Position numbers and translations under genes: made by a program. Below are positions 34,901-63,614 of a DNA stretch of 64,000 nucleotides, in pieces. How positions within the stretch are numbered: position 1 is the stretch's first letter; every line of letters begins with the position of its first letter. Location of the stretch: IMG/VR virus record IMGVR_UViG_3300032331_000874, positions 46 through 64,045 of that record. The stretch is one strand, 5' to 3'. The stretch comes from a virus. Its lineage: Duplodnaviria > Caudoviricetes. The notes under the pieces are model-generated. The model saw only the letters and a list, made by a program, of their open reading frames with translations. It searched no databases and was not told where the DNA came from.

Positions 34901-37900
34901 CTGTAAGACAACAACGCCGTATTGCAGAACGCTCTGGCACTAAATCGCCCGGCTACGCAAAAGTTGAAGCTGACATTAACAAAAAGCTTGAAGCATTTGC
35001 TGAAGATCAGAAAAAAGTACAACAGTACTACGAGACATTAAAGCGTTATCGCGGTATACAAGATCAGTCCGCTGATGCACTGGTCAAAGTGTATAACCAG
35101 CTTGATAAACAACGCCGTGACGTAGAGAAACGAAGAGACGCGTTAAAGCCTAATACACCACAGGCACGTACCGCATTGCGTGCGTACAACCAGCAGATTG
35201 CTGAGATTGATAAAGAGTTTGAAGAAATGCGCTCTGGGTTTGCATCCAGCGGCAAAGAAATTGATACCGCCGTTACAGCGTTTGAAAAGAAAATTCAAAG
35301 CATACAGAACTTCCAAGATGCTCTTGCTGACAACGCTGCAATAGCGCGTCAACCAGCCTTGCAATACCTAAAAGACTACATAGGTAGAAACAAAGCCGTT
35401 AAAGCTGCGCTTGAAGAAGCTACTGGTCTGCGTAAAGTATTTGATACGTTACAGCAACAACGCCGTGAGTTTATAAGCAAGGTAGCCGGAGCTAAACGTA
35501 CAGCCGCTGCTATTGAAGCAGGTCAAGGTAAGACTGCTGCACAACGTATGGCAGAAGACCAAGCTGCGCTTGCAAGACAGCAAGGTCTTGGGTTACCCGG
35601 AACAAAAGTTACTCGCGCTGATATTAAGTCTGATATTGCTGCTGCTGAAGATACGCTGGCAGAAGAACGTGATCGTCTTGAAAAAATGCGTGACGACCGT
35701 GAAGACATGAATACCCGCGAAGGTATTGATAAACAAGAAAAGTCTGCGCTTACCCGTTTAATTAAAACGGCAGAAGACAAAACTATTCCTAATATTGAAA
35801 GTGAGATAGGTAGCCTAAAACAAGAAGCTAAAGGCATGACCGAACCCGCAGTAAAAGAAAAAGCTAAACCAGAAGGCGCTTTACCCGCAGGTAAACAAGA
35901 AAAAGCTAAAGCAAAGTTTGAAGAAGCGTTTGAAGAATTTTTATTAACAAAAGACCTTTCGCGTGAGTTTGACGAAGAAGGTTTTCCAATTAAAAAAGTA
36001 CGTGGCCCTTATACAAAAACGCTAAGCCCACCACAAATTCGCACATCGGCAGCCGCAGCCGCTGGTCCTGTACGTGTAGCAACTGCTGAACAAAAAGCAA
36101 AAGCAGCGGAACGCATAGCTAAAGAAAAACCAAGAAGCGAGATCGACACAACTAACACAGGTTGGGAACGCTTTACTAAAAATAAAACAGTATTCCGTGT
36201 AGGCAAAGAACCTGCCACACCAGTTGACGCTAAAGAAGCGCAAGCCTACATAGATCAGGTTACCAACGAGTTGCCTGATAGCATTAACTTTACATACGCT
36301 AAAGACATACAAAGTTTGCCTGAAGAATTTATTGGTTACATGATTGACCAAAAGGTAGACATTCTGAAAGACGGCGGCAAGATAAAAGGCGGCGTTACGC
36401 CTGAAGGCAAAGTGTTTGTTATTGGCGCAGCGCATAAGTCGATGGCTGATTTAGAGTTGACTGTTGCTCATGAAATTGTAGGCCACTACGGTATCGACGC
36501 TATGCTTGGCCCTAAAGGTATGGGCGCGTTGGTTCGTGCTGTAGAACGTGGCGAAGGTGGTGTAATGGGGTTGGCTAAACGTCTGGGTGTTGAAGAAGGC
36601 GTACAGCAAACCATGCTTGCCTATGATGAGCAAATACAGGCAGCTAAAGACCGTAACGCATCAGCTAAAGAAATAGCTGACTTGGAAAAAGCCAAACGCA
36701 TTACCGTGGTGCGTGAACTGGTTGCGTATTCTGCTGAGCGCACGTTTACTGACAAGGCTGAAGCTAAGACGTGGATGCAGAAAGCTAACAACTTTATTAA
36801 AGAAATTGTAGCTGCCCTGCGTAACCGCCTAATCAAGATGGGCTTTAAGTATTTGATTACGGCAGACACCAAAGACATCTACCGTTTGCTACAAGAATCT
36901 GCGCGGTCTATTGGCGATAAAACAGTTGGCGCTTATCAAACAATTGATGGTGACATGGTGTTCCGCCGTGAAGCTATGTATGGCAATACGCCAACAGACG
37001 TAAAAAATACAGTAAACGCTGTTGTTAAAGGTCCTACAACAATTGCTGATCGTATTAGGTCTGAGGTTACAGGCATTGGCGCACGCACTATGTTTGTTGA
37101 TCGTTTTGCACCTTTGCAAAATGTAGCCGACTATTTAAAGAAATCATCGCAAGCTATGCAGATGATGTACTACGCTCGTATGCACGATCAACGTATGGCG
37201 TGGACAGCTTCTACCGTTAATGATGGCGCACCTACGCTTGAGGTAGATGAAAAAGGTAACCGCATTATTAAGACGCGGGGTGGCGCTAATTTAAATCAAA
37301 TTGCTAACAAGCTGGCTGAAGTTAAAGGCTACGGCAACGCTGAAGCTGTACGCAATTTGTTTACAACCTATTTAGCTGCACACCGTGCCAAGAACAAAGG
37401 CATCAACACCCTAAACTTTTCTGGCGCTGTAACACCTGCTGAACTTAAGCGCGTCATGGATTTGGGCGACAGCATCCCGCAGTTTGTAGAAGCACGGAAG
37501 ATGTACAACGAGTACAACAACGGCTTAATAAACTGGATAGCTGAAGCTGGCGCTATTGATAAAGCCGTAGCAACGCAACTAACTAAAGACCAAGACTACG
37601 TACCGTTCTATCGCGCTATTGGCGACAATGTAGTTATGGAAGTTGCTGGCTCACAGACTATTACTATTGGCAACATACAGAACCAACCATACTTAAAAGA
37701 GTTAGTTGGTGGCGACCAGAAAATTCAGGACTTCTTCACGTCTTCGCTGCAAAACACTAGCATGCTGGTGGATATGGGCTTGCGTAACTTAGCCACTAAA
37801 GAAGCGGTGTTCTCACTGCAAGAAGCTGGACTGCTTCAACAACTTGGTACGTACAAAGGCAAGCCAACATACATGGCTAACGGGCATGGCCCAACGCAAC

Positions 37901-39573
37901 CTAACGTCTTACGCTTTAAGCGTGATGGCAAAGACGTTTACGCAACCGTCAACAGCGAATCAATTGGTATTCCCTCAGAGCTTTTGGTCAAAGGCATGCA
38001 CGGCGTAACAACCACGATTGGTGGCTTCACCAAAGTTCTGGCTGTGCCTGCAAAATTCTTGCGTGCTATGGTCACGCGAAGCCCAGTCTACGCAGCCCGT
38101 CAGGTTGTTCGCGATTCGATGTCAAACTATTTGCTGGTTGGTGGAGATATGACACCCGTGGCTTCTGCCGCAAAAGAATTGATAAACATGTACAGCGGTA
38201 AAAGTACAGGGGAGAAGGCGCTGCAACAGCGTGGTGTGATTGGTGGGCAGTTGTTGACCGGCACATCAGAAGACATGCAAAACATTCTGCTTCAACTAAC
38301 CAAAGGCGGTTCAGGTTGGGAGATGGCGCTGGCAAAGTTAGACCGCATGCACATGAAGGCAGATGCAGCCGCACGTATCACGCTCTACAACAGCTACCGC
38401 AAGCAGGGTATGTCGGATATGGAAGCAACGCTGGCTACGCTAGAGTCCATGAACTTTAGTAAGCGCGGTGCTAGCGGTTCGCTGTATGCGTTGAACATGA
38501 TGGTGCCATTCCTAAACGCACAGATACAAGGTTTGAACGTACTGTACGAAGCGTTTACAGGCAAGCTGCCTTACGCTGAGAAACTGGCTGTTCAACGCAA
38601 ACTAATTGCGCGGGGCTTGATGATGGCGGCAGGTACTGTAGCCTACGCAGCCATGATGCAGGATGATGACGCATACAAGAACGCTAGCTTGCGTGACCGT
38701 TTGCAAAACTGGTTTATTCGCGTACCCGGTTTTGATGAGCCAGTTAAAGTACCTATTCCGTTTGAAGTTGGTTTGATCTTCAAGGCGTTGCCTGAAGCTG
38801 TTCTGTTGATGAACAAGGACGATGAAGACGCTACTAAAGTATTAGCAGCATTGGGCGGGTTGGCAGCGATGTCTTCTCCTGTGGGCGTTTCTACGGCTGT
38901 GCCACAAGCAGCTAAGCCAGTTGTTGAAGGCGTGATGAACAAGTCGTTCTATAACGGCGCTGAGATTGAATCCCAACGTGAGCAAGAGTTGCTGCCCCAA
39001 GAACGTGTACGTGATAAGACAAGTGGTGTTGCTAAGTTGTTGAGTGGTGCGATTGGCGCTGTAACTGAGACTGCCGGTTACCCAACCAAAGGCATCTCGC
39101 CAATCATGATCGACCATTTAATTAACGGCTACACAGGCGGTACAGGTCTGGCTATTGCACAGATGGTTGGCACATTAGTGCCAGTTGGGGAGCAACCTCC
39201 TGCTGCAACCAAGCGCATGTCTGACTTGCCTATAGTTGGTTCGATGTTCCAGCCAATTGATGCAACAGGGCAGATCACACAGTTCTACGATAAAGCTACA
39301 GAGTACGGGCAGATCAAAGCAACGTACGACAAAATGGTTGCGGAAGGCCGTGATAAAGAAGCGGAAAAGTTTGCCAACGATTACGCCAAAGAAATTACAT
39401 TTGCAGATATTGGCAGCGACTTTAAAGGCGTGATGTCAGACTTTACTGAACTAGAACGCGCCATCAAAGCTGATCGTGAGATGCCTCCTCAAGAGAAGCG
39501 AGAGAAGTTGGATGAGCTTCGTCAGGCGAAGATTGAGTTTGCAAAATCCTTTCACGCCGCTTCGCGCCAATAG
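31981..39573 (+). CDS. Giant internal virion protein (2530 aa), polyvalent type with HExxGH motif and LPD38-like C-terminus
   Basis: VAHEIVGHYG; PFLNAQIQG and RLQNWFI.VPG..KVPIPFEVG motifs; long coiled coils. Confidence 0.75.
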   Translation: MPLNVERALQEGYPLSEIADVLAKETRFNIGKAREEGYNDNDIVDLLSKKRSQAQPQAGFVPAFKSGVEGLKGDIGALGVGANVQGAEEYVKQQREKQAQIYKQPEFSESPVSYLTGLLGQSVPYMLAPAAAGAAAFAAVPAGATALTASIASGLAAGLASATQFTGSNISRQLEAGKAGKDVDVAKAVAAAIPQAALDTFSMRMVPGLGKIFGKAGIEMTEAELEQVAKHGLVSGVADKVRKYGPAVIKTAGAEGLTESAQQVLERAQAGLNLTDEEAKKEYYDNFIGGALLGGTLAIPGHAMERGAARQEAQQKKDERLAKEREAERQKEEAYKQSDEYFVKLDTQFTDLKKQQQDLIAQRGKKPGKDADEDAKTQYNELTNQIKDLNGQLKDVAAEHKAALPRITAIKAEAERQGMTPEEYFLKQMGEKPPEEAKPKEEPTETGMADLVEGKFERVNPLQKQLDQRLQGIRYFDRMKEHAVVARHIAEDPQLAEAFVNGELKIPELNAKDIKTIQKAMPLQLKAIEEERAAEAEKKVGEEKGALFRISENVRAAEDINRRLDSERYALRNIAQDESNPVGINEKLNEIVRLLEAKTKTTVESEVKRAAKPGAVVGRRTAGEGRRTERAPALVLNEETGEYEEQKTPGDAAALRIGPDSELLRMIEQFRVLQQQKGAARDSAELTELAEKIRLAAQPQRNEVIGGPTLEIVSLLEKPGQKSTYIAELDRLSKEQDEAFPAALDAVRAASEYRKNPEAPPLTGTLSAKSGSPEQRIEAESARLDAEERKARGRFTTAVLQEVEANRRANAVPSVTKDEANLIAGRVNNMLQMAAARKFGAPTEAMDVIRDDIAKLVTQYSDVERVKGTPKRVELVGPRKPAATEEVAVEEVKAEPAVEEAAPVVPYNEEPGSFLANFRQFTQTQKEEREEIKKEVKQVTAASKQEGMTAKRALNIVNAHIDAMAAKLETLVNAVRQQRRIAERSGTKSPGYAKVEADINKKLEAFAEDQKKVQQYYETLKRYRGIQDQSADALVKVYNQLDKQRRDVEKRRDALKPNTPQARTALRAYNQQIAEIDKEFEEMRSGFASSGKEIDTAVTAFEKKIQSIQNFQDALADNAAIARQPALQYLKDYIGRNKAVKAALEEATGLRKVFDTLQQQRREFISKVAGAKRTAAAIEAGQGKTAAQRMAEDQAALARQQGLGLPGTKVTRADIKSDIAAAEDTLAEERDRLEKMRDDREDMNTREGIDKQEKSALTRLIKTAEDKTIPNIESEIGSLKQEAKGMTEPAVKEKAKPEGALPAGKQEKAKAKFEEAFEEFLLTKDLSREFDEEGFPIKKVRGPYTKTLSPPQIRTSAAAAAGPVRVATAEQKAKAAERIAKEKPRSEIDTTNTGWERFTKNKTVFRVGKEPATPVDAKEAQAYIDQVTNELPDSINFTYAKDIQSLPEEFIGYMIDQKVDILKDGGKIKGGVTPEGKVFVIGAAHKSMADLELTVAHEIVGHYGIDAMLGPKGMGALVRAVERGEGGVMGLAKRLGVEEGVQQTMLAYDEQIQAAKDRNASAKEIADLEKAKRITVVRELVAYSAERTFTDKAEAKTWMQKANNFIKEIVAALRNRLIKMGFKYLITADTKDIYRLLQESARSIGDKTVGAYQTIDGDMVFRREAMYGNTPTDVKNTVNAVVKGPTTIADRIRSEVTGIGARTMFVDRFAPLQNVADYLKKSSQAMQMMYYARMHDQRMAWTASTVNDGAPTLEVDEKGNRIIKTRGGANLNQIANKLAEVKGYGNAEAVRNLFTTYLAAHRAKNKGINTLNFSGAVTPAELKRVMDLGDSIPQFVEARKMYNEYNNGLINWIAEAGAIDKAVATQLTKDQDYVPFYRAIGDNVVMEVAGSQTITIGNIQNQPYLKELVGGDQKIQDFFTSSLQNTSMLVDMGLRNLATKEAVFSLQEAGLLQQLGTYKGKPTYMANGHGPTQPNVLRFKRDGKDVYATVNSESIGIPSELLVKGMHGVTTTIGGFTKVLAVPAKFLRAMVTRSPVYAARQVVRDSMSNYLLVGGDMTPVASAAKELINMYSGKSTGEKALQQRGVIGGQLLTGTSEDMQNILLQLTKGGSGWEMALAKLDRMHMKADAAARITLYNSYRKQGMSDMEATLATLESMNFSKRGASGSLYALNMMVPFLNAQIQGLNVLYEAFTGKLPYAEKLAVQRKLIARGLMMAAGTVAYAAMMQDDDAYKNASLRDRLQNWFIRVPGFDEPVKVPIPFEVGLIFKALPEAVLLMNKDDEDATKVLAALGGLAAMSSPVGVSTAVPQAAKPVVEGVMNKSFYNGAEIESQREQELLPQERVRDKTSGVAKLLSGAIGAVTETAGYPTKGISPIMIDHLINGYTGGTGLAIAQMVGTLVPVGEQPPAATKRMSDLPIVGSMFQPIDATGQITQFYDKATEYGQIKATYDKMVAEGRDKEAEKFANDYAKEITFADIGSDFKGVMSDFTELERAIKADREMPPQEKREKLDELRQAKIEFAKSFHAASRQ

Positions 39574-50266: not shown

Positions 50267-50550
50267 GTAAACCCTTTCAGTATCTGCTCAAGCAGATCAA
50301 TGTTGTCTTCGTTAATTACCGCAGCCACACCCTGCGCTGTGCGAATCTTTTCCATCTCAGCTTCTTGCAACGGTGTTGGTTTGTTCTTACCAGCCTTACA
50401 CTCGATAGCAATGAAACGCCCTTTGTAGCAACAGATAATGTCTGGCACACCAGACTTACCGTATCCGCCTGTTACTGGGGAGAAGTAATACACGCCCCAC
50501 TCTTTTAGTATCTTGTATAGCTTGGCTTTTACTTTAGCTTCAGGTGTCAT
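50263..50550 (-). CDS. VRR-NUC nuclease / Holliday-junction resolvase
   Basis: TPEAKVK, GVPDII, AIECKA, PTPLQ. Confidence 0.85.
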   Translation of the reverse strand: MTPEAKVKAKLYKILKEWGVYYFSPVTGGYGKSGVPDIICCYKGRFIAIECKAGKNKPTPLQEAEMEKIRTAQGVAAVINEDNIDLLEQILKGFT

Positions 50551-51464
50551 GTGAGTCCTAACAAAGTATCTGCTGCGCGTTTAATGTTCTCCCACGAATC
50601 ATATCGAGGTCTATAGCCAAACTGTTCTGCTGTTTGGTTGCGCGAATAATAGAAAGTCTTTAGTCCTGTGGGCGAAACAAACGTAGGATGAGTAACTTCA
50701 AACTTTAATCCGTAGGTACGCTTCATGTTCGCCAACAAATCATTCTTAGTAATCGGCTCTCGCGTGTAGCAATCCAACGCACCGTTAGCCGTAGGTTGAA
50801 TAAGTATCCACGATAGTAGATGCCCTAAGTCCTCGGGTCCGATAAAGTCCCGCACAAGGTTTGTTGTGTCCACAGGCATGACTTCATTATTCTTAACAGC
50901 GCGAATCATATTCATCGCCATAAAGTTCAAATTAATATCCTGTGTACCGCTGATGTAATTAAACACACGCACATCCACTATGTGTTTGTCTCGCAGCGTG
51001 CGATGCCTAACCTCTGCTTGATGCTTGGCTAACCCATAGTAGTGCTGTGGTTGTGGGCTAGTTGGAAACGTAACATTCGTACTCCACCCCGCAGGGTCAA
51101 TATCAAAAACGTCACCGTACGCTGCACCACTACTAATGAAAATGTACTTGGTGTTAGGGCGGCGCAAGAAGCGCAACGCAAGCTCGTCATACTTGTAGGT
51201 GATAGGGAATATGTCAGCGCCCATCGCTGCTAACTTAACAGGGTCACCTACACCTACGAAGTTAATTACCGCATCTACATACCACTGCGTATCAGGCAGC
51301 ACATGGTAGCCAAACGATAGATAGTCACGCAGTCCTGCCGCTTGCATGAACGTATCAACTTCTGCTGGCTTACGCGAGAACAACATCAGCGCGTGGTTAT
51401 CCGCCAGATGCCGAATAAAATCCTTAGCCATCTGACTTGTCGCACCTAGTATTGCAATCCTCAT
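50547..51464 (-). CDS. NAD(P)-dependent sugar epimerase/reductase (extended SDR; YerF-like by context)
   Basis: ILGATSQMA, ISSGAAYG, YGLAK (YxxxK), VRVFNY, RDFI. Confidence 0.8.
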   Translation of the reverse strand: MRIAILGATSQMAKDFIRHLADNHALMLFSRKPAEVDTFMQAAGLRDYLSFGYHVLPDTQWYVDAVINFVGVGDPVKLAAMGADIFPITYKYDELALRFLRRPNTKYIFISSGAAYGDVFDIDPAGWSTNVTFPTSPQPQHYYGLAKHQAEVRHRTLRDKHIVDVRVFNYISGTQDINLNFMAMNMIRAVKNNEVMPVDTTNLVRDFIGPEDLGHLLSWILIQPTANGALDCYTREPITKNDLLANMKRTYGLKFEVTHPTFVSPTGLKTFYYSRNQTAEQFGYRPRYDSWENIKRAADTLLGLT

Positions 51465-52198
51465 GGCTTCACCACCATTTCTTCTTCTATAGTTTCAGGC
51501 GGCAAGAACGGTGTCATGTCATGCAGCGGCGCTTGCTTACCATCCTTGAACGACTGCGAAGGCAGGACTTGTTGGTCTGGTGTGCAACGGCAGTCAAATA
51601 TTATTGAATCGTAGTCACAAAACAAAAGATCAAAGTCTCTATTCATGCCTGTCACGTCTTCTATAAACATGTAGTTCACATCAAAAGCTGCTGCCACATC
51701 TCTGAAATTAGGAAAAAACAAACCTGTTTTATCGTTGACACCATGCACGCGTCCTTCAAAAAACTTTGACTGCGTGTTTTTGATGCTGAGGTAACCGGAG
51801 TTGTTTATCACCACAATCTTAATGTTTAAATAATGTTCGCTAATAACAGCAAGCTCTTGTATGTTGGACATAAAGCTACCATCACCTACGATACAAATAA
51901 CTTGTTTAGCTCCAGCCTTAGCTACGCCTATAGCAGCAGGTAACGCCCAGCCCATGTCACCTTGCGACTGACTCATCACAAGACGCTGTGTCCCTTTGAA
52001 TTTGTACGCTTGCGGGACTGCATAGAAAGCTGTACCAGCGTCACACATAATGACAGCTTCATCATCACTGTGTTTGCTTATGGCATCAAGCACTGCATAA
52101 ATATTCAGCCCGTTGCTGTCATCTAAATACTCTGGCTGCATGACAGGCCACTTGTATTTCCAATGCTCACACTTGGCTAACCATTCATTTCTTGTCAT
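51461..52198 (-). CDS. ThDP-dependent enzyme, C-terminal PP domain (acetolactate synthase/YerE-like, split gene part 2)
   Basis: GDMGWALPAAIG, GDGSFMSN...INNSGY ThDP motif; ATGA overlap and own GAGG SD. Confidence 0.88.
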   Translation of the reverse strand: MTRNEWLAKCEHWKYKWPVMQPEYLDDSNGLNIYAVLDAISKHSDDEAVIMCDAGTAFYAVPQAYKFKGTQRLVMSQSQGDMGWALPAAIGVAKAGAKQVICIVGDGSFMSNIQELAVISEHYLNIKIVVINNSGYLSIKNTQSKFFEGRVHGVNDKTGLFFPNFRDVAAAFDVNYMFIEDVTGMNRDFDLLFCDYDSIIFDCRCTPDQQVLPSQSFKDGKQAPLHDMTPFLPPETIEEEMVVKP

Positions 52199-53202
52199 AG
52201 CATCCCTCTAAAAAAACTATCGAGCGTTGTTTCTATTTTCCAATCTATTGGAATGATGTCTTTGTGCAATTCATGGACTTCAATGTCTACGTATATCTTG
52301 TACGCCGTAGGATTAAACTGCGCAGGGTCGTAGCCCACAACAGGTGCGCCAAGCGATGTGCCTAAGAACAGTAACAAGTCAGCGTTCTGCATAGCGAAGT
52401 TACCTGCACGATTACCACGCACACCGGGCGTGCCGATGTTTAGTGGGTGTGTGTACGGTGCGTAGTCTTGCGCTCCATAGGTTGTGACGAACGGTATCTT
52501 GAACTGCTCAACAAACTTCATAAACCTTTCTACTTCCCCTGACATCCTGACACCTGTTCCAACCACAACCAACGGACGCTGTGCTTTATTCAACGTGTCA
52601 GTTAGTTTGTATTTCCCTGTAAACATCAGGTACTCACGCGCAACGTATCGCTGCTCGTACTCAGGCATCTGTGCAGTTTGTATGTCGCTAGGTATATCCA
52701 ACCACACAGGACCCTTTCTACCGAACTGCGCCTCACCTATGGCTTCCTGCAACGCCATTGGCACTTCTTCTGGATAGCCTATGAACCGCGCTACCTTTGT
52801 CATGGTACGCATCGTTGCCACCACATCATGCTCTTGCGTACCATAGTGGCGTAAGTTTAAAAACTTAGTTTCTCTCAACCATGTCGTGCAGTTGTCGCGC
52901 TTAACATTGCCTGACAGAAAGAGAATAGGCACACCGTCCTGCCACGCGTTAAGCACGCTAGTCGCACAGTTAGTACCACCGCACCCTGTTGTGGGGTTAA
53001 CCACAGCAAGCTCACCTGTGTACTTAGCTTCTCCTATGGCTGCATGCCCTGCGCCTTGCTCGTTGTGATAGCAGATGTATTCGATCTTCCCATGCTTGAT
53101 GAAGCCATCATTCAATCCTGCTGCACCACCACCCATCAAGCCATGCACACGCCGTACACCTATGCTATACAGGTAGTCTGCTATCCAATCAGCTACTCTC
53201 AT
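52195..53202 (-). CDS. ThDP-dependent enzyme, N-terminal PYR + central domains (acetolactate synthase/YerE-like, split gene part 1)
   Basis: HNEQGAGHAA (catalytic Glu), TTGCGGTN, GRKGPVWLDIPSD, NFAMQNADLLL. Confidence 0.88.
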   Translation of the reverse strand: MRVADWIADYLYSIGVRRVHGLMGGGAAGLNDGFIKHGKIEYICYHNEQGAGHAAIGEAKYTGELAVVNPTTGCGGTNCATSVLNAWQDGVPILFLSGNVKRDNCTTWLRETKFLNLRHYGTQEHDVVATMRTMTKVARFIGYPEEVPMALQEAIGEAQFGRKGPVWLDIPSDIQTAQMPEYEQRYVAREYLMFTGKYKLTDTLNKAQRPLVVVGTGVRMSGEVERFMKFVEQFKIPFVTTYGAQDYAPYTHPLNIGTPGVRGNRAGNFAMQNADLLLFLGTSLGAPVVGYDPAQFNPTAYKIYVDIEVHELHKDIIPIDWKIETTLDSFFRGML

Positions 53203-54434
53203 TAAAAATCTCCCATGAACGCAGACACTTTCTCTGCTACGTACTCCAACATTTCTTTAGTCAGCGCAGGTTGCACACCTAACCACAGCGTGTTGTTCAT
53301 TACTTGGTCAGTCTTGCGCAAGTCGCCTTGCACTCGATAGTTCTGGCCTTTCAAGAACGGTTGCTTCGTTGCGTTGCCAGCAAACAGTAAGCGTGTGCCT
53401 ATCTGGTTCTGGTTTAAGTAACGAACAAACGTGTCACGATCAAAGTCACAGCTATCAGAGAGCGTGATAGGAAACCCAAACCATGAAGGCGTAGCTAAAG
53501 CATAAACGCCGGGGAACCATAGGTTAGTATGCTGTAGCTTGTCAGCTAAGAACTGGTAGTTATCCTGTCTTGCTTTAACAAACTCATGCACACGCTCAAG
53601 CTGCGCTACACCACACGCTGCTTGCATCTCTGTGATCTTTAAGTTGTAACCCACATGACTGAACACATACTTGTGGTCATAGCCTTGTGGTAAGTCGCCA
53701 TGCTTCTGATCGAACCGCATGCCACATGTGTTGTCACTACCCGGCGAACACCAGCAGTCACGCCCCCAATCACGGAACGATTCCACTAAACGTAGTAACT
53801 CCAGATCATTAACAATGACTGCCCCACCTTCGCCCATCGTAATGTGATGCGCGGGGAAAAACGATAATGTAGATAAGTGTCCAAATGTACCCACCTTTTG
53901 CCCTCGCCACTCAGCGCCCAACGCATCGCAGCAGTCCTCGATTAACCACAGGTTGTACTTCTTTGCGAACGCTACAACCACGTCAAGATTGAATGGGTTG
54001 CCCAACGTATGCGCAATGAAGATAGCCTTAGTCTTTTCAGTAACGGCACTCTCAAGCATACTCACATCGATGTTAAGCGTTGCATCTACATCCAAGAACA
54101 CAGGCACACAACCGAACTGAATGATCGGGTTGATCGTAGTAGGGAACCCACACGCAACAGAGATAACCTCGTTCCCCCGCTTGATCGCTCTGTCTCCCAA
54201 CTTAGGAGACGTAAGCGCAGAGAAGGCTACGAGGTTAGCTGAACTGCCTGAGTTGACTGTACGCACAGCCTTGCACTTTAAGTATTCACCTAGCATGCGT
54301 TCAAACTGCGCGTTGTATGCACCCGCAGTCAACCAGCCCTTGTCAACGGCATCGTGCATGTAGTCTTTCTCACGATCTCCCACCACCTGCCCAGAGGCAG
54401 GGATGAAAGTCTTACCGGCTACGAAGTTACTCAT
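53202..54434 (-). CDS. rfbH: CDP-4-keto-6-deoxyglucose-3-dehydrase E1 (RfbH/DdhC)
   Basis: NSGSSANL, EDCCDALG, SFFPAHHITMGEGG (His in place of the aminotransferase Lys), GRDCWCSPGSDNTCG Fe-S motif, TRLLFAGN. Confidence 0.9.
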   Translation of the reverse strand: MSNFVAGKTFIPASGQVVGDREKDYMHDAVDKGWLTAGAYNAQFERMLGEYLKCKAVRTVNSGSSANLVAFSALTSPKLGDRAIKRGNEVISVACGFPTTINPIIQFGCVPVFLDVDATLNIDVSMLESAVTEKTKAIFIAHTLGNPFNLDVVVAFAKKYNLWLIEDCCDALGAEWRGQKVGTFGHLSTLSFFPAHHITMGEGGAVIVNDLELLRLVESFRDWGRDCWCSPGSDNTCGMRFDQKHGDLPQGYDHKYVFSHVGYNLKITEMQAACGVAQLERVHEFVKARQDNYQFLADKLQHTNLWFPGVYALATPSWFGFPITLSDSCDFDRDTFVRYLNQNQIGTRLLFAGNATKQPFLKGQNYRVQGDLRKTDQVMNNTLWLGVQPALTKEMLEYVAEKVSAFMGDF

Positions 54435-55225
54435 ACTGGCGTTTGGATAGGAGTGAAGCCGGGCGTTGCTTGTGCAACAGGTGCAGCCGGAGGCGGCATC
54501 AAGATGCCATCAAACATGTGAGTACCAACGTGCGCTAACTGCGCCCACGGTGCAGCCCATACAGTACCGCCGCATTTCTCACGCCACTCACGGCAGAAAT
54601 GATAGTCCTCAGACAGCAAGCGTTCGCCAGTAGGCTCGATGCTAGTAGCAAAGAACTCAGAGATACGCTCCTTACCAATGTTGCCACCCAAGTCATGTGT
54701 GTCGTTGATGTAGCTAGGTACGTGGTCGCGCAGTTGTTCAAACACCTCACGTTTAATCAGCATGAAACCTGTGCCACCGTTCCATATCTCAACAGGCTGG
54801 TCAAGCTGCACCTGTGCTTCACCTGCGTAGCCAACTAAGTTAACAACGAACGAGCCAGAGTACTTACGCAGTTCATGTGGCGGCACACCAGCAAGCGCAG
54901 CTTTGTGAATCATCTCCCAATTAATCTCTTTCTTAGGATAGATACCGCAGATGATTGGCTTGTCTGCCAACATCATAGGCAGTACGTCCGCAGGGTTGAA
55001 ACGAATGTCAGCGTCAATGAACATCAGGTGCGTGAAGTCAGACTTCAAGAAGCCATGTGCCAACGCATTACGCGCACGCTGAATCAACGACTCGTTAAAC
55101 AGGAACGACATAGCTACGTCAATCTTATTGTCACGCAACGTATTCTGTAATGTCATCAGCGACTGCGCGAAGTAACCAAAGCATTGGCCGCCGTACATTG
55201 GTGTTGCTATAAAAACTTTTGCCAT
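54431..55225 (-). CDS. GT-A fold glycosyltransferase-like protein
   Basis: VFIATPMYGG, ESLIQRARN, LMFIDAD (DxD), GTGFMLIKR, LSEDYHFC. Confidence 0.75.
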   Translation of the reverse strand: MAKVFIATPMYGGQCFGYFAQSLMTLQNTLRDNKIDVAMSFLFNESLIQRARNALAHGFLKSDFTHLMFIDADIRFNPADVLPMMLADKPIICGIYPKKEINWEMIHKAALAGVPPHELRKYSGSFVVNLVGYAGEAQVQLDQPVEIWNGGTGFMLIKREVFEQLRDHVPSYINDTHDLGGNIGKERISEFFATSIEPTGERLLSEDYHFCREWREKCGGTVWAAPWAQLAHVGTHMFDGILMPPPAAPVAQATPGFTPIQTPV

Positions 55226-55234
55226 TCCTAACTC

Positions 55235-55966
55235 CTAGTATTTAAAGATAGATTTCTGTAGCCACGGGAATGTAGCTCCAAACTTGTACTGCATATATTC
55301 ATTGTTACCTAAGAACGTCTCCTTGCTCATGCCTCCTGACCCATCTTTGGATAATCGGTAATTAACTGAGTGCTTGCCTGTCGTACCTGTTGATAGCTTT
55401 GCGTTCATCAATGCGCGTTGAAAGTTTCTATCCGATACAACAGGTACGTACCATGCGTGGCTGTGCTGCCTAGCTATCGCTGTACGTACTGCGTAGCATG
55501 AGTTGTCAACGAGGTAGTGCCCTGTTGCGTTAGGCTGCATGCCTAGTGACTCGCAGTTGTCATCACAAATAAAGTTGCCATCAGCGTCAACGATCTTTCT
55601 AAAGCTATACGCCCACGCTAGGCTGTGTTCTTCTATCAACGCAACCAAACCCTCAATGTGGTCAGGCTCGTACCAGTTGTCATCGTCAAGGTAGAAGATC
55701 ACATCCTCGTCAACAACAAATGGAGCCATAGCAAAAACGGGAGCCATACCGTAGCCATCGCCGCCGTTAGCATTAGGTAGATAAACACCTTCCACATAGG
55801 GGTAGTCCTCTAATAGTATGTCCACTTTTACGTGGTGCGGTTGACCATGAGCAAACACGTAGTGCCTTACTTTGCCTTTGTACGTTTGCTTACGTACACT
55901 CTCAAGTGCTTGGCATATCGTGTTTCTGCCTTGCGTGCTAGTTATTACGGCTACGGATAAGCTCAT
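55235..55966 (-). CDS. Glycosyltransferase family 2-like
   Basis: SVAVIT...ALESVRKQTY, IFYLDDDNWY..DH. Confidence 0.8.
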   Translation of the reverse strand: MSLSVAVITSTQGRNTICQALESVRKQTYKGKVRHYVFAHGQPHHVKVDILLEDYPYVEGVYLPNANGGDGYGMAPVFAMAPFVVDEDVIFYLDDDNWYEPDHIEGLVALIEEHSLAWAYSFRKIVDADGNFICDDNCESLGMQPNATGHYLVDNSCYAVRTAIARQHSHAWYVPVVSDRNFQRALMNAKLSTGTTGKHSVNYRLSKDGSGGMSKETFLGNNEYMQYKFGATFPWLQKSIFKY

Positions 55967-56904
55967 GCTGCCACCATATAGTTAAGTAGTGTGTCAACGA
56001 AGTGCGCGTTGTAAAACTGCTCTGCGTCCGGTGAAGTAATAAACTTTCGTATGGCTACGAGGTAGTCCATGTACTCGTAGCTAGGCATGTTAACTAAGTA
56101 CTCGTATAGTTCCTCGTACGTGTGGAAATCATTAACGTCAACAAAACACTCAGGCGGTATGTGGTCACGCACGTTATGCGCACCCAAGTACACAGGCACA
56201 ACGCCCACCATGAAACAATCCGTTAGCTTCTCGCTGATGTAGCCGTACGAATGACAGTTCTCATACGCTAAACAGAACCGATAGTTAGCTAGCGTCTTTA
56301 GCTTGTCATTGGTTGCGCCCTTGTACGTGGAGAAGTTATGCCCCTGCCAGTTGCGTCCCCACAAATCAAAGTCCCTCGGCGCTTGCGCTGTAAAAAATCG
56401 AATAGCTTCCACACGCTTGTGATATATGCTGAGTGGGTGTGAGCTTTGCTTGTACGTATTCATCAAACACATCAGCTTGCGCTTGTGATAGTTCGTAAAC
56501 ACCTCGTCAGGCGTAGGCATGTACGCGTCTTGCAAGTTAGTCGTGAAGTTAGACTTGATGAACTTGTTGCCATCGACTAAGCGGTCGTCCCACGTAAAGA
56601 CCTTCTCGCAACTATCAAGGAAGTCCTTGTCGTAGTTGTTAGGGATGATGCTGTCTGGTTCGTACAGCACAGCGATAGTGCGTGGTGCTTTAGCTTTGAT
56701 GGTTGTCGGTCTGTCCAACAGGATAAGCAGGTCACCCTCGTCGCGTTGGTCAGGCGTAAACATTTCTATACCGCGCTCTTTCGCAGCCGCATACAGATCG
56801 TTCCACGGACGCAGCAAGCCAGCCCCGATGTCGCTGTCAGGGTTGGTGAACAGGTAGCCGTTGGTCGTGATGAAATCGTAATGGTTCTGGACTATGACTC
56901 TCAT
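55963..56904 (-). CDS. Glycosyltransferase family 10-like (alpha-1,3-fucosyltransferase fold)
   Basis: YRFCLAYEN...GYISEKL.DCF..GVVPVYLG GT10 signature. Confidence 0.85.
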   Translation of the reverse strand: MRVIVQNHYDFITTNGYLFTNPDSDIGAGLLRPWNDLYAAAKERGIEMFTPDQRDEGDLLILLDRPTTIKAKAPRTIAVLYEPDSIIPNNYDKDFLDSCEKVFTWDDRLVDGNKFIKSNFTTNLQDAYMPTPDEVFTNYHKRKLMCLMNTYKQSSHPLSIYHKRVEAIRFFTAQAPRDFDLWGRNWQGHNFSTYKGATNDKLKTLANYRFCLAYENCHSYGYISEKLTDCFMVGVVPVYLGAHNVRDHIPPECFVDVNDFHTYEELYEYLVNMPSYEYMDYLVAIRKFITSPDAEQFYNAHFVDTLLNYMVAA

Positions 56905-57920
56905 ATCAGTACGTACCTATAGACAGGGTTGATGGTGTTGTAGTTGAAAGCGAAGTTGTCCCAACGCGTCCAGTTGGCAGCGTTGACTAAGTTGGCAGAA
57001 GGACAGGCCAAGCTCTCCTCACATTCAATCAGAGCAAGGTAGTTCTTCAGGATTGGCAGACACGAAACCTTCTCGCCATACCTATGGCGATAGCCTCGAT
57101 GTCCGAAGGGCGTGATGTTGGTGACTGCGTTGTCTTTATCTACTATGCGTTCGGCTAGCACGTAGTCATCAGACAGTACAAGTCGGCGGGGTACGCGCCG
57201 CGCAAGGGCAGCAGCGTCTTTCATTATTAAATCTTCAGGCGGCAGGATTGTCTCTGCTTCTAGCTTGTCACCACCACGCAGAAAGATTAGCCCTGCGCCT
57301 TGGACGTTGTACTTCTCGTCTTTGTAATAGCTCTTGATCTCGCGCTCGATCTGTCCGTACATGAACACTTTGAACTGACTGAACTGGTCGATGTGCATGG
57401 GTGATGCGGTAAAGATAAAGTCACGCATAGATTCAAAGTGAATCGCTTGCGGGTTGGTAGGTAGCTTATCGACTAGCGTGAATGTCGTACGGAATATATC
57501 GTTGAACGGTTCTTTGTAGTCCCACCATGCGTACGTGTTATCAATCAACAGTTCCTTGTTGTTCATACGCGCAACGTAGGCAGCGACAATCATGTTATCA
57601 ATGACTGAAAAGAAACCAGAGTTACGTGGTTGATACAGCATCGAACCAGTAGGTATGTAGGGCAGATTAAAAAGGGGATTGCTATCGAATGAAACGCCTA
57701 TGTACTTGTTGTACTGCTCATCCGTTAGGTTGTAGTGCTTGCACGCAAGCTCCATCCCCAAGCAGGAGACAATCTCCTGCTTGTAGAAATGGTTCTTTAC
57801 TTGGTGTAGAGGAGGGAGGTCGGCAAGCGAAACCTGACCCCACAAGTACTGACGTGCGTTGATAGCCGCAAGCCTTGCGGGGTCATTGTCTGCCGGTGAG
57901 TAGCGGTTGAATTGAATCAT
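56901..57920 (-). CDS. Putative GT-B glycosyltransferase related to GT23/GT11/NodZ fucosyltransferases
   Basis: SGFFS, IFLRGGDK (cf. HVRRGDK/HVRRTDK), LVLSDD (cf. LATDD), final S-A-N motif. Confidence 0.55.
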   Translation of the reverse strand: MIQFNRYSPADNDPARLAAINARQYLWGQVSLADLPPLHQVKNHFYKQEIVSCLGMELACKHYNLTDEQYNKYIGVSFDSNPLFNLPYIPTGSMLYQPRNSGFFSVIDNMIVAAYVARMNNKELLIDNTYAWWDYKEPFNDIFRTTFTLVDKLPTNPQAIHFESMRDFIFTASPMHIDQFSQFKVFMYGQIEREIKSYYKDEKYNVQGAGLIFLRGGDKLEAETILPPEDLIMKDAAALARRVPRRLVLSDDYVLAERIVDKDNAVTNITPFGHRGYRHRYGEKVSCLPILKNYLALIECEESLACPSANLVNAANWTRWDNFAFNYNTINPVYRYVLI

Positions 57921-58112: not shown

Positions 58113-58436
58113 CTATAGATCATCGAAGTCGTCCTCGATGAAGTAACTAGATACGCGGCTACGCCGTTGCTTACTGTCCTTGATGTCCTCGTTCTTACGG
58201 CGCACCGCAGTTTGTACAGCCTTGATCTTTGAGACTTCAGCAGGGGTGTAAACAGGAGGTGCTTTGAACTTGACAGGGTTAGGCGGTCGTCCTGCGCTAC
58301 GTGTTTCAATGACTGTCTCTAGCGTTTGGAATCTCGCCTTACATGATTCGCACTTACGGTAACGTAACACCCCATCCAATGTAGATTGTTTGACGGTCGA
58401 AGTTACCTGCGAATTGCCACCGCACTTGCATTTCAT
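58113..58436 (-). CDS. Zinc-ribbon protein (NrdR N-terminal-like)
   Basis: MKCKCG...RYRKCESCKARFQTLE. Confidence 0.7.
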   Translation of the reverse strand: MKCKCGGNSQVTSTVKQSTLDGVLRYRKCESCKARFQTLETVIETRSAGRPPNPVKFKAPPVYTPAEVSKIKAVQTAVRRKNEDIKDSKQRRSRVSSYFIEDDFDDL

Positions 58437-60981: not shown

Positions 60982-61980
60982 TTACATAAGTGTTGTGCTG
61001 TCGTGGTTGCCAGACTCGAACAGATCGAATATCCACTCGGCTGCCTCGTCTGGGTATGCGTTAACCATGTCCCACATCTCGCCCTCATGCTTCTCACCGA
61101 ACGATTGCTCAAGCAGGAACGCTGCTTTGTTGGGAGCCATCAACACCCAGTCATACAACGCTTTGATGCCACGCTTGTGACAGTTGTGCGCAGCGCGTGT
61201 GATCTTGGTGATGTTTAACTTCTTGCCGAACGATGAAACATCAGAGTCATAGATTGCATAGTCCTCGAACTCGGCATACTCGTCATCGTAGTCACCGAAC
61301 GCAGCACCGCTTGCTAGACTCTTGCTGCTGTGCTTGGTTGAACCCTTGATGTTGTAGCCGTAGCTGTCGTTCATACCCCACCCGCCGGTGTAATACTTGT
61401 TGACGTTGTTCTTGCGACCATGACCATGCAAGTGTGATGACCACGCATACGTGTTGGATAACCACGCGCCCTCATGTTCGACGCCTGCGTCATAGTTAAG
61501 CACGACACTCTCACCGCTGCTGTGCATGAAAGCAAACTTGTTGCTGTGACCGATCATGTCTTCGAGGTACGTCTGGTAGTCAGGGTCAAAGAGCAGCGCA
61601 GGGTTAGCTTCCAACGCAGGGCGCAGGATGAACTTGATGAAGTGCCATGTGTCGGACTTGGTTTTATCTACTGGGTTGCCCATCGACAGGATGCCGTTGT
61701 GCGCCATCCATATCTCGTCAGTTACTTTGTATGGATGACAGTTCTCCATGTCGATGTCGCCGTGGGTTTTCATACGATAGTGAATGATGCACTCGCGTCC
61801 CTTCAATGCGTCTTTGTACAGCGCATTAATTTCCTGGGGTTTGCCTAGTGTCTTAACGACTACGAGCTTGCCACCCTCTGCATACATAGCACCGAAACCG
61901 TCAGAGTTGTGTGCATAAAAGTCGTTGAGCAATTCGTCGCTGAATGATACGTTTGATGGATGATGAATAAGAATACACAT
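60982..61980 (-). CDS. Class II (Ntn) glutamine amidotransferase
   Basis: Met-Cys start, N.DGFG, HYRMKTHG, NCHPY, HNGIL, SDT. Confidence 0.88.
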   Translation of the reverse strand: MCILIHHPSNVSFSDELLNDFYAHNSDGFGAMYAEGGKLVVVKTLGKPQEINALYKDALKGRECIIHYRMKTHGDIDMENCHPYKVTDEIWMAHNGILSMGNPVDKTKSDTWHFIKFILRPALEANPALLFDPDYQTYLEDMIGHSNKFAFMHSSGESVVLNYDAGVEHEGAWLSNTYAWSSHLHGHGRKNNVNKYYTGGWGMNDSYGYNIKGSTKHSSKSLASGAAFGDYDDEYAEFEDYAIYDSDVSSFGKKLNITKITRAAHNCHKRGIKALYDWVLMAPNKAAFLLEQSFGEKHEGEMWDMVNAYPDEAAEWIFDLFESGNHDSTTLM

Positions 61981-62006: not shown

Positions 62007-63614
62007 TTACGACATGATGCCTTGCAGTTTGAGATGCTTGCGTAAATGCTTTGTCTCGCTGCGTTGTGATGATGAATCGATGAAGTCTAAGAAGCGTGGT
62101 GTTGATAGATGAAACCCTGCCGGTGAGGCTGGCATGGTGAAGTTGACTACTGCATTAGCAAACTCGATAGCAGACAACAGCGTGTCATACACAAGCGTAC
62201 CCTTGAAGATACGAAACTCGACAGTCTGATCGTTGGTAATGTTCAATGCATCGCGGCGTTCAACGTCATACTTGTGTGCGGTAGACAAACGCTTACGTGC
62301 TATGCGTGCATAGTTGACGTTGTACCTACGTGCTACTGCTTTGACTAGCTCATGGTTGTCAGGATGATTCAAGAAGACATTCATCTTGTTAAGCTGCATG
62401 ACGTGCATATTCTTACGACTGACATGCACATGCAGACCACACGTTGACGTGTCATGCGAACGCATACCACGCGTCAAGTCACGATCATTTAACGCAGACC
62501 ATAACTCGTAATGACTGTCTAAGCCCATCGGATTAGTGATGATCTCAAAGCCATGCGTCAATGAACCGTCAGCCTCGAAGTACACACGCTTGCCTACCTC
62601 ACCATCGTTGAGCTTGGCGTTCAATACTTCAACGTGGTCATCGATGCTGCCATCCTTGACCTCGACCTCAAGCTCTACGCCCATGAAGCGGTCGTTGCGT
62701 TGTGTCCATACTGAATGAAGGAAGGGTTGCTTACCGACACGCGAACGATTGTGATAGCTGCCAAGTAACTGCGGCTTTCTGCCCTCGTATTCGTAATGAA
62801 TGTAAGCATCCTCGTCATCATCCCAATGGAAATCATCGTCATCCTCGTGGACATACACCTCGTCACCGTCTCGGTCTAACGCCCAACGACCGCTGTCTGT
62901 GTACACGTATTCGCTGTAGTGTTCCGAGTAGCGATAGTTGTTGTCGATACATGAGTCGCACACGTTGTCGGTGCTATCGTACGGCGTACGCATCAAGTCC
63001 TCATGTGCGTAGTTGCAGCAGTCAGAGCAAGAGTGGTAACCGTTGCTTTGCAATATCTCCTCGACCTCATCGCGGTCGTTCTCTGCGTGGTTGACTAAAA
63101 TGGTAGCTATCTCGCTGCGTTTGTTGCGTGATAAGGCGCTGTTGCTCAAGTCACCGCCTTGTATGTGCCACACCGTTGTGAGTAGACCGTATCCCGTGTT
63201 CTCTGCGATCTCATCAAGCGGCTGCCGCATTACGCCGTTCAATAGTTTACGCATGACAGAGTGGAGCGCTTGTTCTACTGTGTTGCCGTACCGCAGCTCG
63301 CTTATCTGCACCCTGATACGAATAGTCATGGGTTGAAATACCAAGTTAACGAAGGCATACGCTGCGCTCTTGCTGCCGAAGTCGCCACGCTCAACAAGTC
63401 TGGCTACTGCATTGAAGAACGCCTCAAGTCTGTCGCGTGCTGCTAAACGTACGTCTTCTGGATAGACTTGGCGTGGGTCGGGGTTGTCGTGCATGAGCGC
63501 ATAGGTAGAGGTCATAACTACCAGTAGCGCGTGTTCCAAGCGGTTAATGTAGCCGCTTTCTGGTTGGGGTTGAGCTACAGTAAAAAAGTCATACTGTGAC
63601 GATGATTGTGTCAT
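62007..63614 (-). CDS. Putative amidoligase (COOH-NH2 ligase, Amidoligase_2-like) with Cys-rich middle segment
   Basis: GVELEVE, EADGSL..GFEIIT, TCGLHVHVS, TVEFRIFKGT. Confidence 0.85.
   Translation of the reverse strand: MTQSSSQYDFFTVAQPQPESGYINRLEHALLVVMTSTYALMHDNPDPRQVYPEDVRLAARDRLEAFFNAVARLVERGDFGSKSAAYAFVNLVFQPMTIRIRVQISELRYGNTVEQALHSVMRKLLNGVMRQPLDEIAENTGYGLLTTVWHIQGGDLSNSALSRNKRSEIATILVNHAENDRDEVEEILQSNGYHSCSDCCNYAHEDLMRTPYDSTDNVCDSCIDNNYRYSEHYSEYVYTDSGRWALDRDGDEVYVHEDDDDFHWDDDEDAYIHYEYEGRKPQLLGSYHNRSRVGKQPFLHSVWTQRNDRFMGVELEVEVKDGSIDDHVEVLNAKLNDGEVGKRVYFEADGSLTHGFEIITNPMGLDSHYELWSALNDRDLTRGMRSHDTSTCGLHVHVSRKNMHVMQLNKMNVFLNHPDNHELVKAVARRYNVNYARIARKRLSTAHKYDVERRDALNITNDQTVEFRIFKGTLVYDTLLSAIEFANAVVNFTMPASPAGFHLSTPRFLDFIDSSSQRSETKHLRKHLKLQGIMS

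Follow-up and report, generated by a model that had tools for sequence, protein, structure and literature searches.

Which sugar would a phage make with eight adjoining genes of rare-sugar metabolism and glycosyl transfer, and on what would it place the product? The question is raised by a cassette in the window analyzed here, i.e., the whole stretch of 64,000 nucleotides that covers bases 46-64045 of the 64,045-bp IMG/VR record IMGVR_UViG_3300032331_000874 (CheckV completeness 100%). The cassette consists of eight co-directional, mostly overlapping open reading frames (ORFs), here called g1 to g8, on the minus strand at 50547-57920, exactly where the original prediction had placed them. It takes up 7,374 of the 64,045 bases (11.5% of the genome). 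Six of its seven gene junctions are overlaps of 1-4 nt and the remaining one is a gap of 9 nt; the genes are intact and translationally coupled. The eight-gene unit is confirmed and is beyond chance, since independent contigs repeat its gene order. The identities first proposed for all eight genes were also borne out by Pfam, NCBIfam, and structure searches (for g1, which had been called GT23/GT11-like, at the level of the fold). Overall, judging from the sequences, the cassette probably turns a host-made cytidine diphosphate (CDP) sugar into a branched 3,6-dideoxy sugar, which would be attached together with other sugars to an acceptor. Direct support is available for the gene families and their motifs, for the conservation of the gene order, for the place of the sequences in the tree, and for the cassette being an accessory element.

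The dehydrase and the split thiamine diphosphate enzyme

The product of g5 passes the NCBIfam equivalog model of RfbH (NF011936) with 640.7 bits against a cut-off of 423, falls into the DegT family (1.4e-92), and matches the Yersinia E1 structure 3bcx with an E value of 6.2e-159. In the alignment, the His at the pyridoxamine 5'-phosphate (PMP) site of g5 lies in the motif PAHH, as in wild-type 3bcx, the mutant entry 3bb8 reading PAKH. Four cysteines (C169, C227, C229, and C237) follow the pattern C-x57-C-x-C-x7-C and align with Cys in 3bcx; we take this pattern to be the [2Fe-2S] motif of E1. Because the equivalog threshold is passed and both the PAHH His and the Cys pattern are kept, g5 is predicted to be an E1-type dehydrase. 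The same three features uphold the earlier view of this gene as an RfbH dehydrase and not an aminotransferase. The His stands where aminotransferases have their Schiff-base Lys.

The genes g6 and g7 encode the two parts of a thiamine diphosphate (ThDP) enzyme. Pfam domains TPP_enzyme_N and TPP_enzyme_M were found in g6 and TPP_enzyme_C in g7 (1.6e-29); the catalytic Glu48 is present in g6 (HNEQ), and the ThDP-binding motif GDGS-x24-NN starts at residue 105 of g7. The best PDB match of g6 was JanthE (8rph; 4e-43, 151 bits), with E. coli acetohydroxyacid synthase (AHAS) I (6lpi) at 131 bits and 5ahk, which we take to be PpYerE, at 4.6e-36. JanthE is a ketone-accepting YerE-like enzyme (PMC12188165; relevant sections of PMC12247030). 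The two genes might also be thought to encode an acetolactate synthase that supplies branched-chain amino acids and is unrelated to the adjoining sugar genes, which is what the names of the best NCBIfam matches and the JGI annotations of homologues say. However, all AHAS equivalog models scored far under their cut-offs (at best 164.6 versus 738 bits for g6, and 114 versus 870 for g7).

A search of 1.84 billion representatives with g6 listed 150 matches of 184-437 bits, mostly fused proteins of ~600 aa. The best 120 of 958 g6 homologues measured 315-348 aa (most of them 333-343) at 59-97% identity, and many were located on contigs of 60-68 kb. Scanning IMG/VR with g6 as a single protein gave no match, so that a profile scan was needed; this returned 117 pattern matches and 94 confirmed stretches, the best 80 of which were fetched as loci (locus numbers such as L117 are our own). 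Every one of the 80 has the N and C parts side by side, as two genes in 75 and as one fused gene of 607 aa in five. The single polypeptide of ~570-620 aa that is usual for YerE-like enzymes is thus replaced here by products of 335 and 245 aa, and this split is real, because g6 has homologues of matching length and the split form occurs in 75 of the 80 IMG/VR loci. The five fused enzymes (L056, L057, L059, L060, and L067) are nested among split forms in the tree described below, which suggests either re-fusion or an uncertain root.

Bacterial relatives were obtained by scanning one genome per species, and the best 80 of at least 565 confirmed stretches, from very diverse phyla, were retained. 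They are 36-41% identical to g6 and fused in 80 of 80 loci (median 602 aa). A match to g5 (tblastn) lies within 10 kb in 62 of these loci, at an identity of at least 42% in 57. ORF clustering, with NCBIfam searches of the cluster representatives, found a CDP-glucose 4,6-dehydratase cluster in 62 bacterial loci and a glucose-1-phosphate cytidylyltransferase cluster in 45, the representatives of both passing their equivalog cut-offs. We then computed a quick maximum-likelihood tree (IQ-TREE) from the N-terminal ~345 residues of 81 rows, comprising the window, 17 split and five fused phage sequences, bacterial loci, metagenome representatives, and context-verified IlvG, IlvB, and IlvI. All phage sequences grouped in a single clade (SH-aLRT 98-99) that lies within the bacterial enzymes from sugar loci, and IlvG, IlvB, and IlvI were placed on a separate long branch (support 99).

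These results support g6/g7 as a YerE-type branching enzyme that groups with sugar-locus enzymes and not with AHAS, and for which acceptance of a ketone is predicted. The tree, the score gap, and the AHAS equivalogs below cut-off all agree with the original prediction of a split YerE-type enzyme distinct from IlvB, and the clustering with anabolic IlvB that had been named in advance as speaking against it was not seen in the quick tree. An acetolactate synthase is scarcely credible for this locus, given also that a DegT-family gene (tblastn match to g5) stands near the ThDP genes in 79 of the 80 phage loci, against the 62 of 80 in bacteria, and that a transketolase takes the place of the ThDP enzyme in the sister cassettes presented below.

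Table 1. Predicted genes of the cassette, with positions in the window
Gene	Predicted product	Position	Strand	Length	Source of assignment
g1	Soluble glycosyltransferase, fucosyltransferase-like superfamily (GT23/GT11/GT65-like fold)	56901..57920	-	339 aa	
g2	GT10-like glycosyltransferase	55963..56904	-	313 aa	Pfam Glyco_transf_10
g3	GT2-family (GT-A) glycosyltransferase, weakly assigned	55235..55966	-	243 aa	Pfam Glycos_transf_2
g4	GT-A-fold glycosyltransferase, DxD motif D71-A-D73	54431..55225	-	264 aa	Structure prediction
g5	RfbH/DdhC (E1)-type PMP-/Fe-S-dependent CDP-4-keto-6-deoxyglucose 3-dehydrase	53202..54434	-	410 aa	NF011936
g6	N-terminal (Pyr) and middle domains of split YerE-like ThDP carboligase	52195..53202	-	335 aa	
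g7	C-terminal (PP) domain of split ThDP enzyme	51461..52198	-	245 aa	TPP_enzyme_C
g8	Divergent extended short-chain dehydrogenase/reductase (SDR), candidate branch-keto reductase (YerF-like role)	50547..51464	-	305 aa	

Recurrence of the cassette and the exchange of its ThDP enzyme

The core of dehydrase and split ThDP enzyme is widespread, the 94 confirmed IMG/VR stretches being located on contigs of ~6 kb to 337 kb. The cassette recurs within a set of 12 loci (group A) whose RfbH is 65-74% identical to g5. The core is accompanied in them by g4-like, GT2, GT10, and g8-like genes as far as the contigs reach, the exception being L004, which has a g1-like gene where g8 would be. The genes that flank the cassette in the window are shared only by L003, L006, and L031, and other flanks are present in L007, L016, and L024. 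Because the flanking genes of group A differ in this manner, the cassette resides in more than one phage backbone. The original prediction had treated it as a one-off, which does not hold in view of the several backbones and of the 94 stretches with the core.

The remaining loci (group B), on contigs of up to 337 kb, encode E1-like dehydrases 34-41% identical to g5, and their core is associated with other SDRs, FkbM methyltransferases, GT10 with FucT_N, GT2, GT-D, and NAD synthase. A class I/II aminotransferase lies between the dehydrase and ThDP genes in 41 of them and is 45-55% identical to the gene at the same position in the bacterial loci L083, L086, and L117. Some group-B loci adjoin T4-type clamp and clamp-loader (gp45/gp44-type) genes. 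Group-B phages of 130-337 kb (L005, L020, L053, L055, L061, and others) combine the aminotransferase with two further SDR types, an FkbM methyltransferase, and NAD synthase. When 88 DegT sequences were aligned (87 locus ORFs plus g5 of the window), 74 had PAHH and the Cys motif, eight were ColD-like second copies (His, no Cys motif), four did not extend over the site, and two covered part of it. The ColD-like copies are found upstream in some group-B loci (L055, L056, L076, and five further rows) and point to a putative second route of 3-deoxygenation in the same phages.

The distribution of the cassette was also followed along the lineage of the window's polymerase. A scan of IMG/VR confirmed 237 relatives of this polymerase, the best 80 of which were kept, and in 22 of these the contig extends 8 kb or more upstream of the polymerase gene. 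The full cassette was present in one (the contig of L003), only a g4-like gene in six (one of which also has a g3-like gene), and none of g1-g8 in 15. Since a single one of the 22 loci carries all of it, the cassette is an accessory island. Lone g4-like GT-A transferases, 54-56% identical, were observed near the polymerase in L188, L189, L198, L201, L234, and L238, and transferases of this type may have a basal role that is independent of the branched sugar.

No match to the cluster was obtained by megablast against 50,697 phage records, and the module was found in no isolated phage: g6 had tblastn matches of only ~27-32% identity, in records that, where annotated, hold ordinary acetolactate synthase genes, several of them on bacterial or contaminant contigs. 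The best tblastn match of g5 (59% identity) was an unannotated fragment of 2.5 kb, and polymerase relatives among isolates were only ~30% identical. Near-identical DNA was detected only in DNA runs, several labelled freshwater metagenome, with no RNA run among those listed. Contigs from four of the DNA runs cover 29-30 of 30 bins and show numerous substitutions and some indels; they come from mixed relatives, and these four runs show only that related sequence is present in runs labelled freshwater metagenome.

A further set of loci differs at the very position of the ThDP enzyme. In L167 and L168 the polymerase is 95-96% identical to that of the window and the g8-type SDR is kept (68-73% identical). 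The SDR of L168 is preceded by a split transketolase (3-2177; Transketolase_N, then Transket_pyr), and the contig of L167 ends inside the SDR gene. A scan with the transketolase subunit of L168 led to L246 (5195-11757), L247, and L249, which share the order GT10, GT2, g4-like gene, RfbH, N part of the transketolase, pyrimidine-binding part of the transketolase, and g8-type SDR; L248 has the same order up to the end of its contig after the transketolase. Across L246, L247, and L249, identities are 80-82% for the g4-like protein, 68-74% for RfbH (relative to g5), and 43-80% for the SDR. Their transketolase parts measure 253 aa (N) and 280 aa (pyrimidine-binding), the domain matches are at 2.6e-30 for Transketolase_N and 1.5e-32 for Transket_pyr, and the best PDB match of the pyrimidine-binding subunit is 6yaj, the C-terminal chain of a split transketolase (8e-32). 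By these assignments, the slot between RfbH and the SDR is filled in sister cassettes by a ThDP enzyme of another superfamily.

In the sections of PMC12247030 devoted to them, transketolases encoded by split genes are the other class of ThDP enzymes for which keto-sugar branching is predicted, with 13 predicted cases, all from Streptomycetes and none characterized. We regard the swap as the strongest comparative evidence on the function of the slot. Because a non-homologous transketolase replaces the YerE-like enzyme between the dehydrase and the SDR, it supports a slot that would serve for ThDP-dependent C-C branching of the dehydrase product, with the SDR acting afterwards.

Proposed pathway, its precursor, and its transferases

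From the family assignments we infer the substrate, donor, order of steps, and product as follows. First, g5 would remove the C3 hydroxyl of CDP-4-keto-6-deoxy-D-glucose made by the host; as no DdhD is encoded by the phage, a host reductase would supply the electrons. Next, a heteromer of g6 and g7 would decarboxylate a 2-oxo acid and add the acyl unit to the C4 ketone; pyruvate would be the simplest donor because the cassette has no donor-making gene. The SDR g8 would then reduce the branch ketone, giving a CDP-linked 4-C-(1-hydroxyalkyl)-3,6-dideoxyhexose of the yersiniose class. Finally, g1-g4 would build a short glycan containing the branched sugar on an acceptor at the cytoplasmic side.

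The branch might instead be a longer or functionalized chain of the erwiniose or caryophyllose type, derived from another 2-oxo acid. According to the part of PMC12247030 on donors, the 2-oxo acids taken by YerE-like enzymes range from C2 to C8, and pyruvate is not accepted by ErwE. Because of this range only a class of product is supported: the original prediction of yersiniose stands for a C4-acyl- or hydroxyalkyl-branched 3,6-dideoxyhexose, not for yersiniose itself. Genes that could make donors accompany the bacterial enzymes, 16 of the 80 loci having one that resembles HOA aldolase and 22 one that resembles HpcH/HpaI, and the aminotransferase of the 41 other phage loci described above could be read in the same sense. 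The cassette of the window, however, contains neither an aldolase nor an aminotransferase gene, so that a donor from common metabolites is expected and the longer branch appears doubtful here.

The precursor of the proposed yersiniose-class sugar would have to come from the cell. Six-frame searches of the 64,045-bp record detected neither an NTP_transferase nor a CDP-glucose 4,6-dehydratase (i.e., no DdhA or DdhB), nor the NAD_binding_1 and Fer2 domains of a DdhD, in agreement with the original prediction, to which none of the three had been visible. Lacking these genes, the phage must rely on the host for the precursor. Glucose-1-phosphate cytidylyltransferase was also absent from four complete records (67-337 kb) and from one that is ~55% complete, and host-precursor dependence is therefore general. 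In a crude scan for ferredoxin motifs, 79 of the 80 bacterial loci and all of the phage loci were without a DdhD-like ORF. As it is missing from so many bacterial loci too, an unlinked reductase may be usual for the RfbH/ThDP family. In this regular-expression scan, a plant-type ferredoxin Cys motif within an ORF of 280-420 aa was seen in one of the 80 bacterial RfbH/ThDP loci (L082-L161).

The transferase genes g1-g4, grouped as TRANSFERASES, all encode soluble proteins. No Pfam, NCBIfam, or PHROG match was found for g1. Foldseek searches of the PDB with its AlphaFold2 model (pLDDT 87) returned FUT8 (E 2.3e-7), followed by AtFUT1, POFUT1/2, and NodZ; the Foldseek probability was 1.0, yet TM-scores reached only 0.4-0.5. 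In BFVD it matched alpha-1,2- and O-fucosyltransferases from giant viruses and cyanophages, and the ESM Atlas was led by FUT8_N_cat, NodZ, and O-FucT. The stretch R215-G-G-D218-K219 of g1 is invariant in 30 homologues and is presumably an Arg-containing nucleotide-binding motif; none of its 128 homologues is annotated. For g2, Glyco_transf_10 was matched at 5.4e-18 (65.7 bits, cut-off 23.9), and the best PDB sequence match was the H. pylori alpha-1,3-fucosyltransferase 2nzw (1e-12), with FUT9 next. The FucT_N domain was not detected in g2, though it was found in the GT10 protein of L020. For g3, Glycos_transf_2 scored 28.4 bits (cut-off 23.3) in a match confined to residues 85-126, and a DDD motif is present at residue 94; homologues of g3 occur in 26 of the 80 related IMG/VR loci.

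The protein encoded by g4 belongs to phrog_1574, a family with no assigned function (2.4e-45), and matches Pfam Anp1 below threshold (20.5 versus 28.8). A PDB sequence search with g4 gave nothing useful. Its AlphaFold2 model (pLDDT 74) retrieved Mnn9 (4.8e-7), then STIV A197, ppGalNAc-Ts, and SpsA; 149 PDB structures matched at E <= 0.001, and the chains listed are almost all GT-A-fold glycosyltransferases. Both D71 and D73 are invariant in 14 sequences. Relatives of g4 occur in T4-like phages that infect alphaproteobacteria, in Synechococcus phages, and in HTVC023P, and no role is known for any of them. The models point to glycosyltransferase folds for g4 and, less clearly, for g1. We propose that one or another of g1-g4 may use the CDP-sugar, and assign this role to no particular one of the four.

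For g8, Pfam Epimerase scored 41.8 bits (cut-off 20.9) and Y143-x3-K147 is present; a PDB sequence search found no relative. Homologues at 30-34% identity occur in four of the 80 bacterial loci, and in L083 (a Patescibacteria metagenome-assembled genome) and L117 (Methylophilaceae bacterium LSUCC0401) the fused ThDP gene is immediately followed by a g8-type SDR. The gene order of L117 is cytidylyltransferase, 4,6-dehydratase, RfbH, aminotransferase, ThDP enzyme, and g8-type SDR, which on gene content makes L117 the apparent closest bacterial counterpart of the phage core among the 80 loci fetched. A first count of g8-type SDRs in 74 loci was rejected, as single-linkage clustering had merged them with unrelated SDRs, to which direct BLAST shows no similarity. 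We regard g8 as a candidate for a YerF-like reduction of the branch ketone.

Several points weigh against the proposed pathway. Besides the missing DdhD, the absence of DdhA and DdhB means that it works only in a host that makes CDP-4-keto-6-deoxyglucose. The families of g1 and g2 typically use guanosine diphosphate (GDP)-fucose. The tree that places g6 came from a quick search, not a careful one, and holds no authentic YerE, YerF, or ErwE, JanthE and PpYerE entering the comparison only through PDB scores. The step given to g8 is the weakest link, because the N-terminal glycine (nucleotide-binding) motif of this protein is degenerate and BLAST detects no similarity between it and the SDRs encoded after the ThDP genes in the majority of the other phage loci.

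Genomic setting, acceptor, and relation to known systems

The genome in the window encodes a large terminase, a portal, a capsid protein, a primase/helicase, a helicase, and a family-A DNA polymerase. Its nearest terminases are ~50% identical and all from aquatic phages, namely DSL-LC04, 023Pt_psg01, the pelagiphages HTVC027P and HTVC023P, and Planktothrix and Synechococcus phages. No tyrosine integrase or serine recombinase (resolvase) was found in the six-frame searches, in line with the apparently lytic phage of the original prediction, and no tRNA genes were found. The cassette is part of a leftward block, with small ORFs on one side and an Hjc-like resolvase gene and the polymerase gene on the other; its neighbourhood is a replication-gene operon, away from the structural genes. 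Across the cassette region, promoter-like sites (19 found, 21.5 expected) and terminator-like sites (17 found, 15.9 expected) were at chance level.

Other features were observed around the cassette. Just upstream (58113-58436, minus strand) is an ORF of 107 aa with a sub-threshold match to an NrdR-like zinc ribbon (24.3 bits, cut-off 27.2). At 60982-61980 and 62007-63614 on the same strand, a class-II glutamine amidotransferase-like gene (GATase_4, 1e-5) adjoins an amidoligase-like gene (Amidoligase_2, 5.7e-7; phrog_16683), a pair that is also located upstream of the polymerase in relatives without the sugar cassette (L181, L207, and L230). On the plus strand, an ORF of 2,530 aa (31981-39573) matches phrog_9854 and phrog_18222, families with no assigned function, in its C-terminal third; other cassette-bearing backbones have a protein of 1,900-2,060 aa with an LPD38 domain on the opposite strand (L246:12362-18073).

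Proteins of the phage itself (capsid, tail, or fibers) are one candidate acceptor, the glycan forming a coat that would alter adsorption, stability, or recognition. In line with this, none of the eight cassette proteins has a membrane segment (no hydrophobic 19-mer above threshold), and the window holds no polytopic membrane ORF, i.e., none with more than four hydrophobic 19-mer segments. The predicted folds of g4 and g1 have polypeptide GalNAc-transferases and protein O-fucosyltransferases among their neighbors, a likeness at the fold level only that does not define acceptors. The g4-like gene kept near the polymerase in six of 22 loci without the sugar genes implies that an acceptor is available without the cassette, and virion glycosylation by phage transferases was reportedly described by Freeman and colleagues in 2023. 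The location of the cassette in a replication-gene operon, not beside the structural genes, speaks against virion proteins, which we hold to be a possible acceptor at somewhat less than even odds.

Lipid-linked intermediates of the host's O-antigen, capsule, or S-layer could be modified instead and exported by the host, giving an altered cell surface that may, for example, block superinfection. In bacteria, RfbH and YerE-like enzymes serve the synthesis of envelope polysaccharides, as indicated by portions of PMC12247030 and by the bacterial loci collected here. Dependence on a host CDP-sugar pathway implies a host that already makes CDP-deoxyhexose glycans, and the section of PMC7029224 on such genes proposes O-chain remodelling for the lipopolysaccharide (LPS)-type genes of pelagimyophages. 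Against this acceptor, the record lacks genes for a polyprenol-phosphate transferase, a flippase, a glycan polymerase, and a ligase, and without an integrase or resolvase there would be no long residence in which a changed surface pays off. The original prediction had concluded from the lack of a flippase and Wzy that the acceptor is probably cytoplasmic; this is not established, since soluble transferases can act on lipid-linked intermediates that the host exports.

A third candidate, also named in the original prediction, is modified bases of the phage DNA, for protection against restriction. The cassette does lie among replication genes (polymerase, helicase, primase, and nucleases), and phage transferases are said to hypermodify DNA with glycans (work attributed to Pyle and colleagues, 2024). 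However, the six-frame searches of the complete record revealed no ThyA-family hydroxymethylase, TET/JBP, or C5 DNA methyltransferase. With the known routes to a hydroxymethyl acceptor base missing, DNA is disfavoured and very improbable. Virion proteins and host envelope glycans are, by our estimate, about equally likely.

The Yersinia pseudotuberculosis (O6/O12) pathway to yersiniose A, with DdhA-D, YerE, and YerF and the gene order ddhC-yerE-yerF, resembles the proposed phage pathway in its E1/RfbH dehydrase, its ThDP enzyme of the decarboxylase superfamily, and its reductase, for which the phage has a candidate. The phage differs in that DdhA, DdhB, and DdhD are missing, the ThDP enzyme is encoded by two genes, and the genes are phage-borne with no Wzx/Wzy context. 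Among bacterial YerE-like enzymes (PpYerE, JanthE, ErwE, and MMAR_2332), JanthE is the best solved relative of g6, and the bacterial relatives likewise belong to CDP-glucose/RfbH loci; in contrast to the latter, fused in all 80 cases, the phage sequences (36-41% identical) form their own clade, with the polypeptide divided behind the middle domain in 75 of 80. The split-gene transketolases of Streptomyces have their likeness in the two-gene transketolase between RfbH and SDR in sister cassettes (L168 and L246-L249), where they are phage-borne, and not in the window itself.

Fibrils of giant viruses and virions of mycobacteriophages are glycosylated, and as in those systems the transferases are virus-encoded, here with part of a rare-sugar pathway; giant-virus and cyanophage fucosyltransferases are also the viral fold neighbors of g1. 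Those virions are known to be glycosylated, whereas the present system is known from its genes alone. LPS and O-chain genes of pelagimyophages and cyanomyophages offer another parallel, as aquatic phages with transferases and deoxy-sugar genes whose target is given as unknown in the pertinent section of PMC7029224, and the T4-type clamp and clamp-loader genes beside some core modules recall their setting. In contrast, a term search of PMC7029224 gave no mention of acetolactate, thiamine, dehydratase, or aminotransferase, and the core of dehydrase and ThDP enzyme is not described in it.

The enzyme families involved (E1/RfbH, YerE-like, SDR, GT10, GT2, and GT-A) are already known, as are LPS-type auxiliary genes in aquatic phages. 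What is new is the phage-borne branched-sugar core, its conserved two-gene YerE-like form, its wide spread in viral metagenomes, and the exchange with a split transketolase. No phage module of this kind was found described in the literature covered, which did not include the in-silico survey of Krug et al. and its supplements, where viral sequences might be listed.

Branched-chain deoxy sugars are rare and have so far been tied to bacterial O-antigens and antibiotics. Tentatively, and with the odds rather against it, the cassette may be a portable unit of freshwater phages whose exchangeable branching slot yields varied branched 3,6-dideoxy sugars on the virion or the infected cell, acting as a fast-evolving surface code. 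If so, it would be the first virus-encoded pathway to a branched-chain sugar, and its sister cassettes would provide the first natural transketolase-type sugar branching outside the antibiotic clusters of Streptomyces. Viruses are named among the unexplored sources of sugar-branching ThDP enzymes in a section of a 2025 review (PMC12247030). The two-gene YerE-type enzyme would then represent a natural split form of use for tertiary-alcohol biocatalysis, and the swap of YerE-type enzyme and transketolase a natural experiment on the evolution of the branching step. For phages themselves, it would mean that glycosylation reaches beyond the common sugars, by means of a module that is abundant in freshwater viral data.

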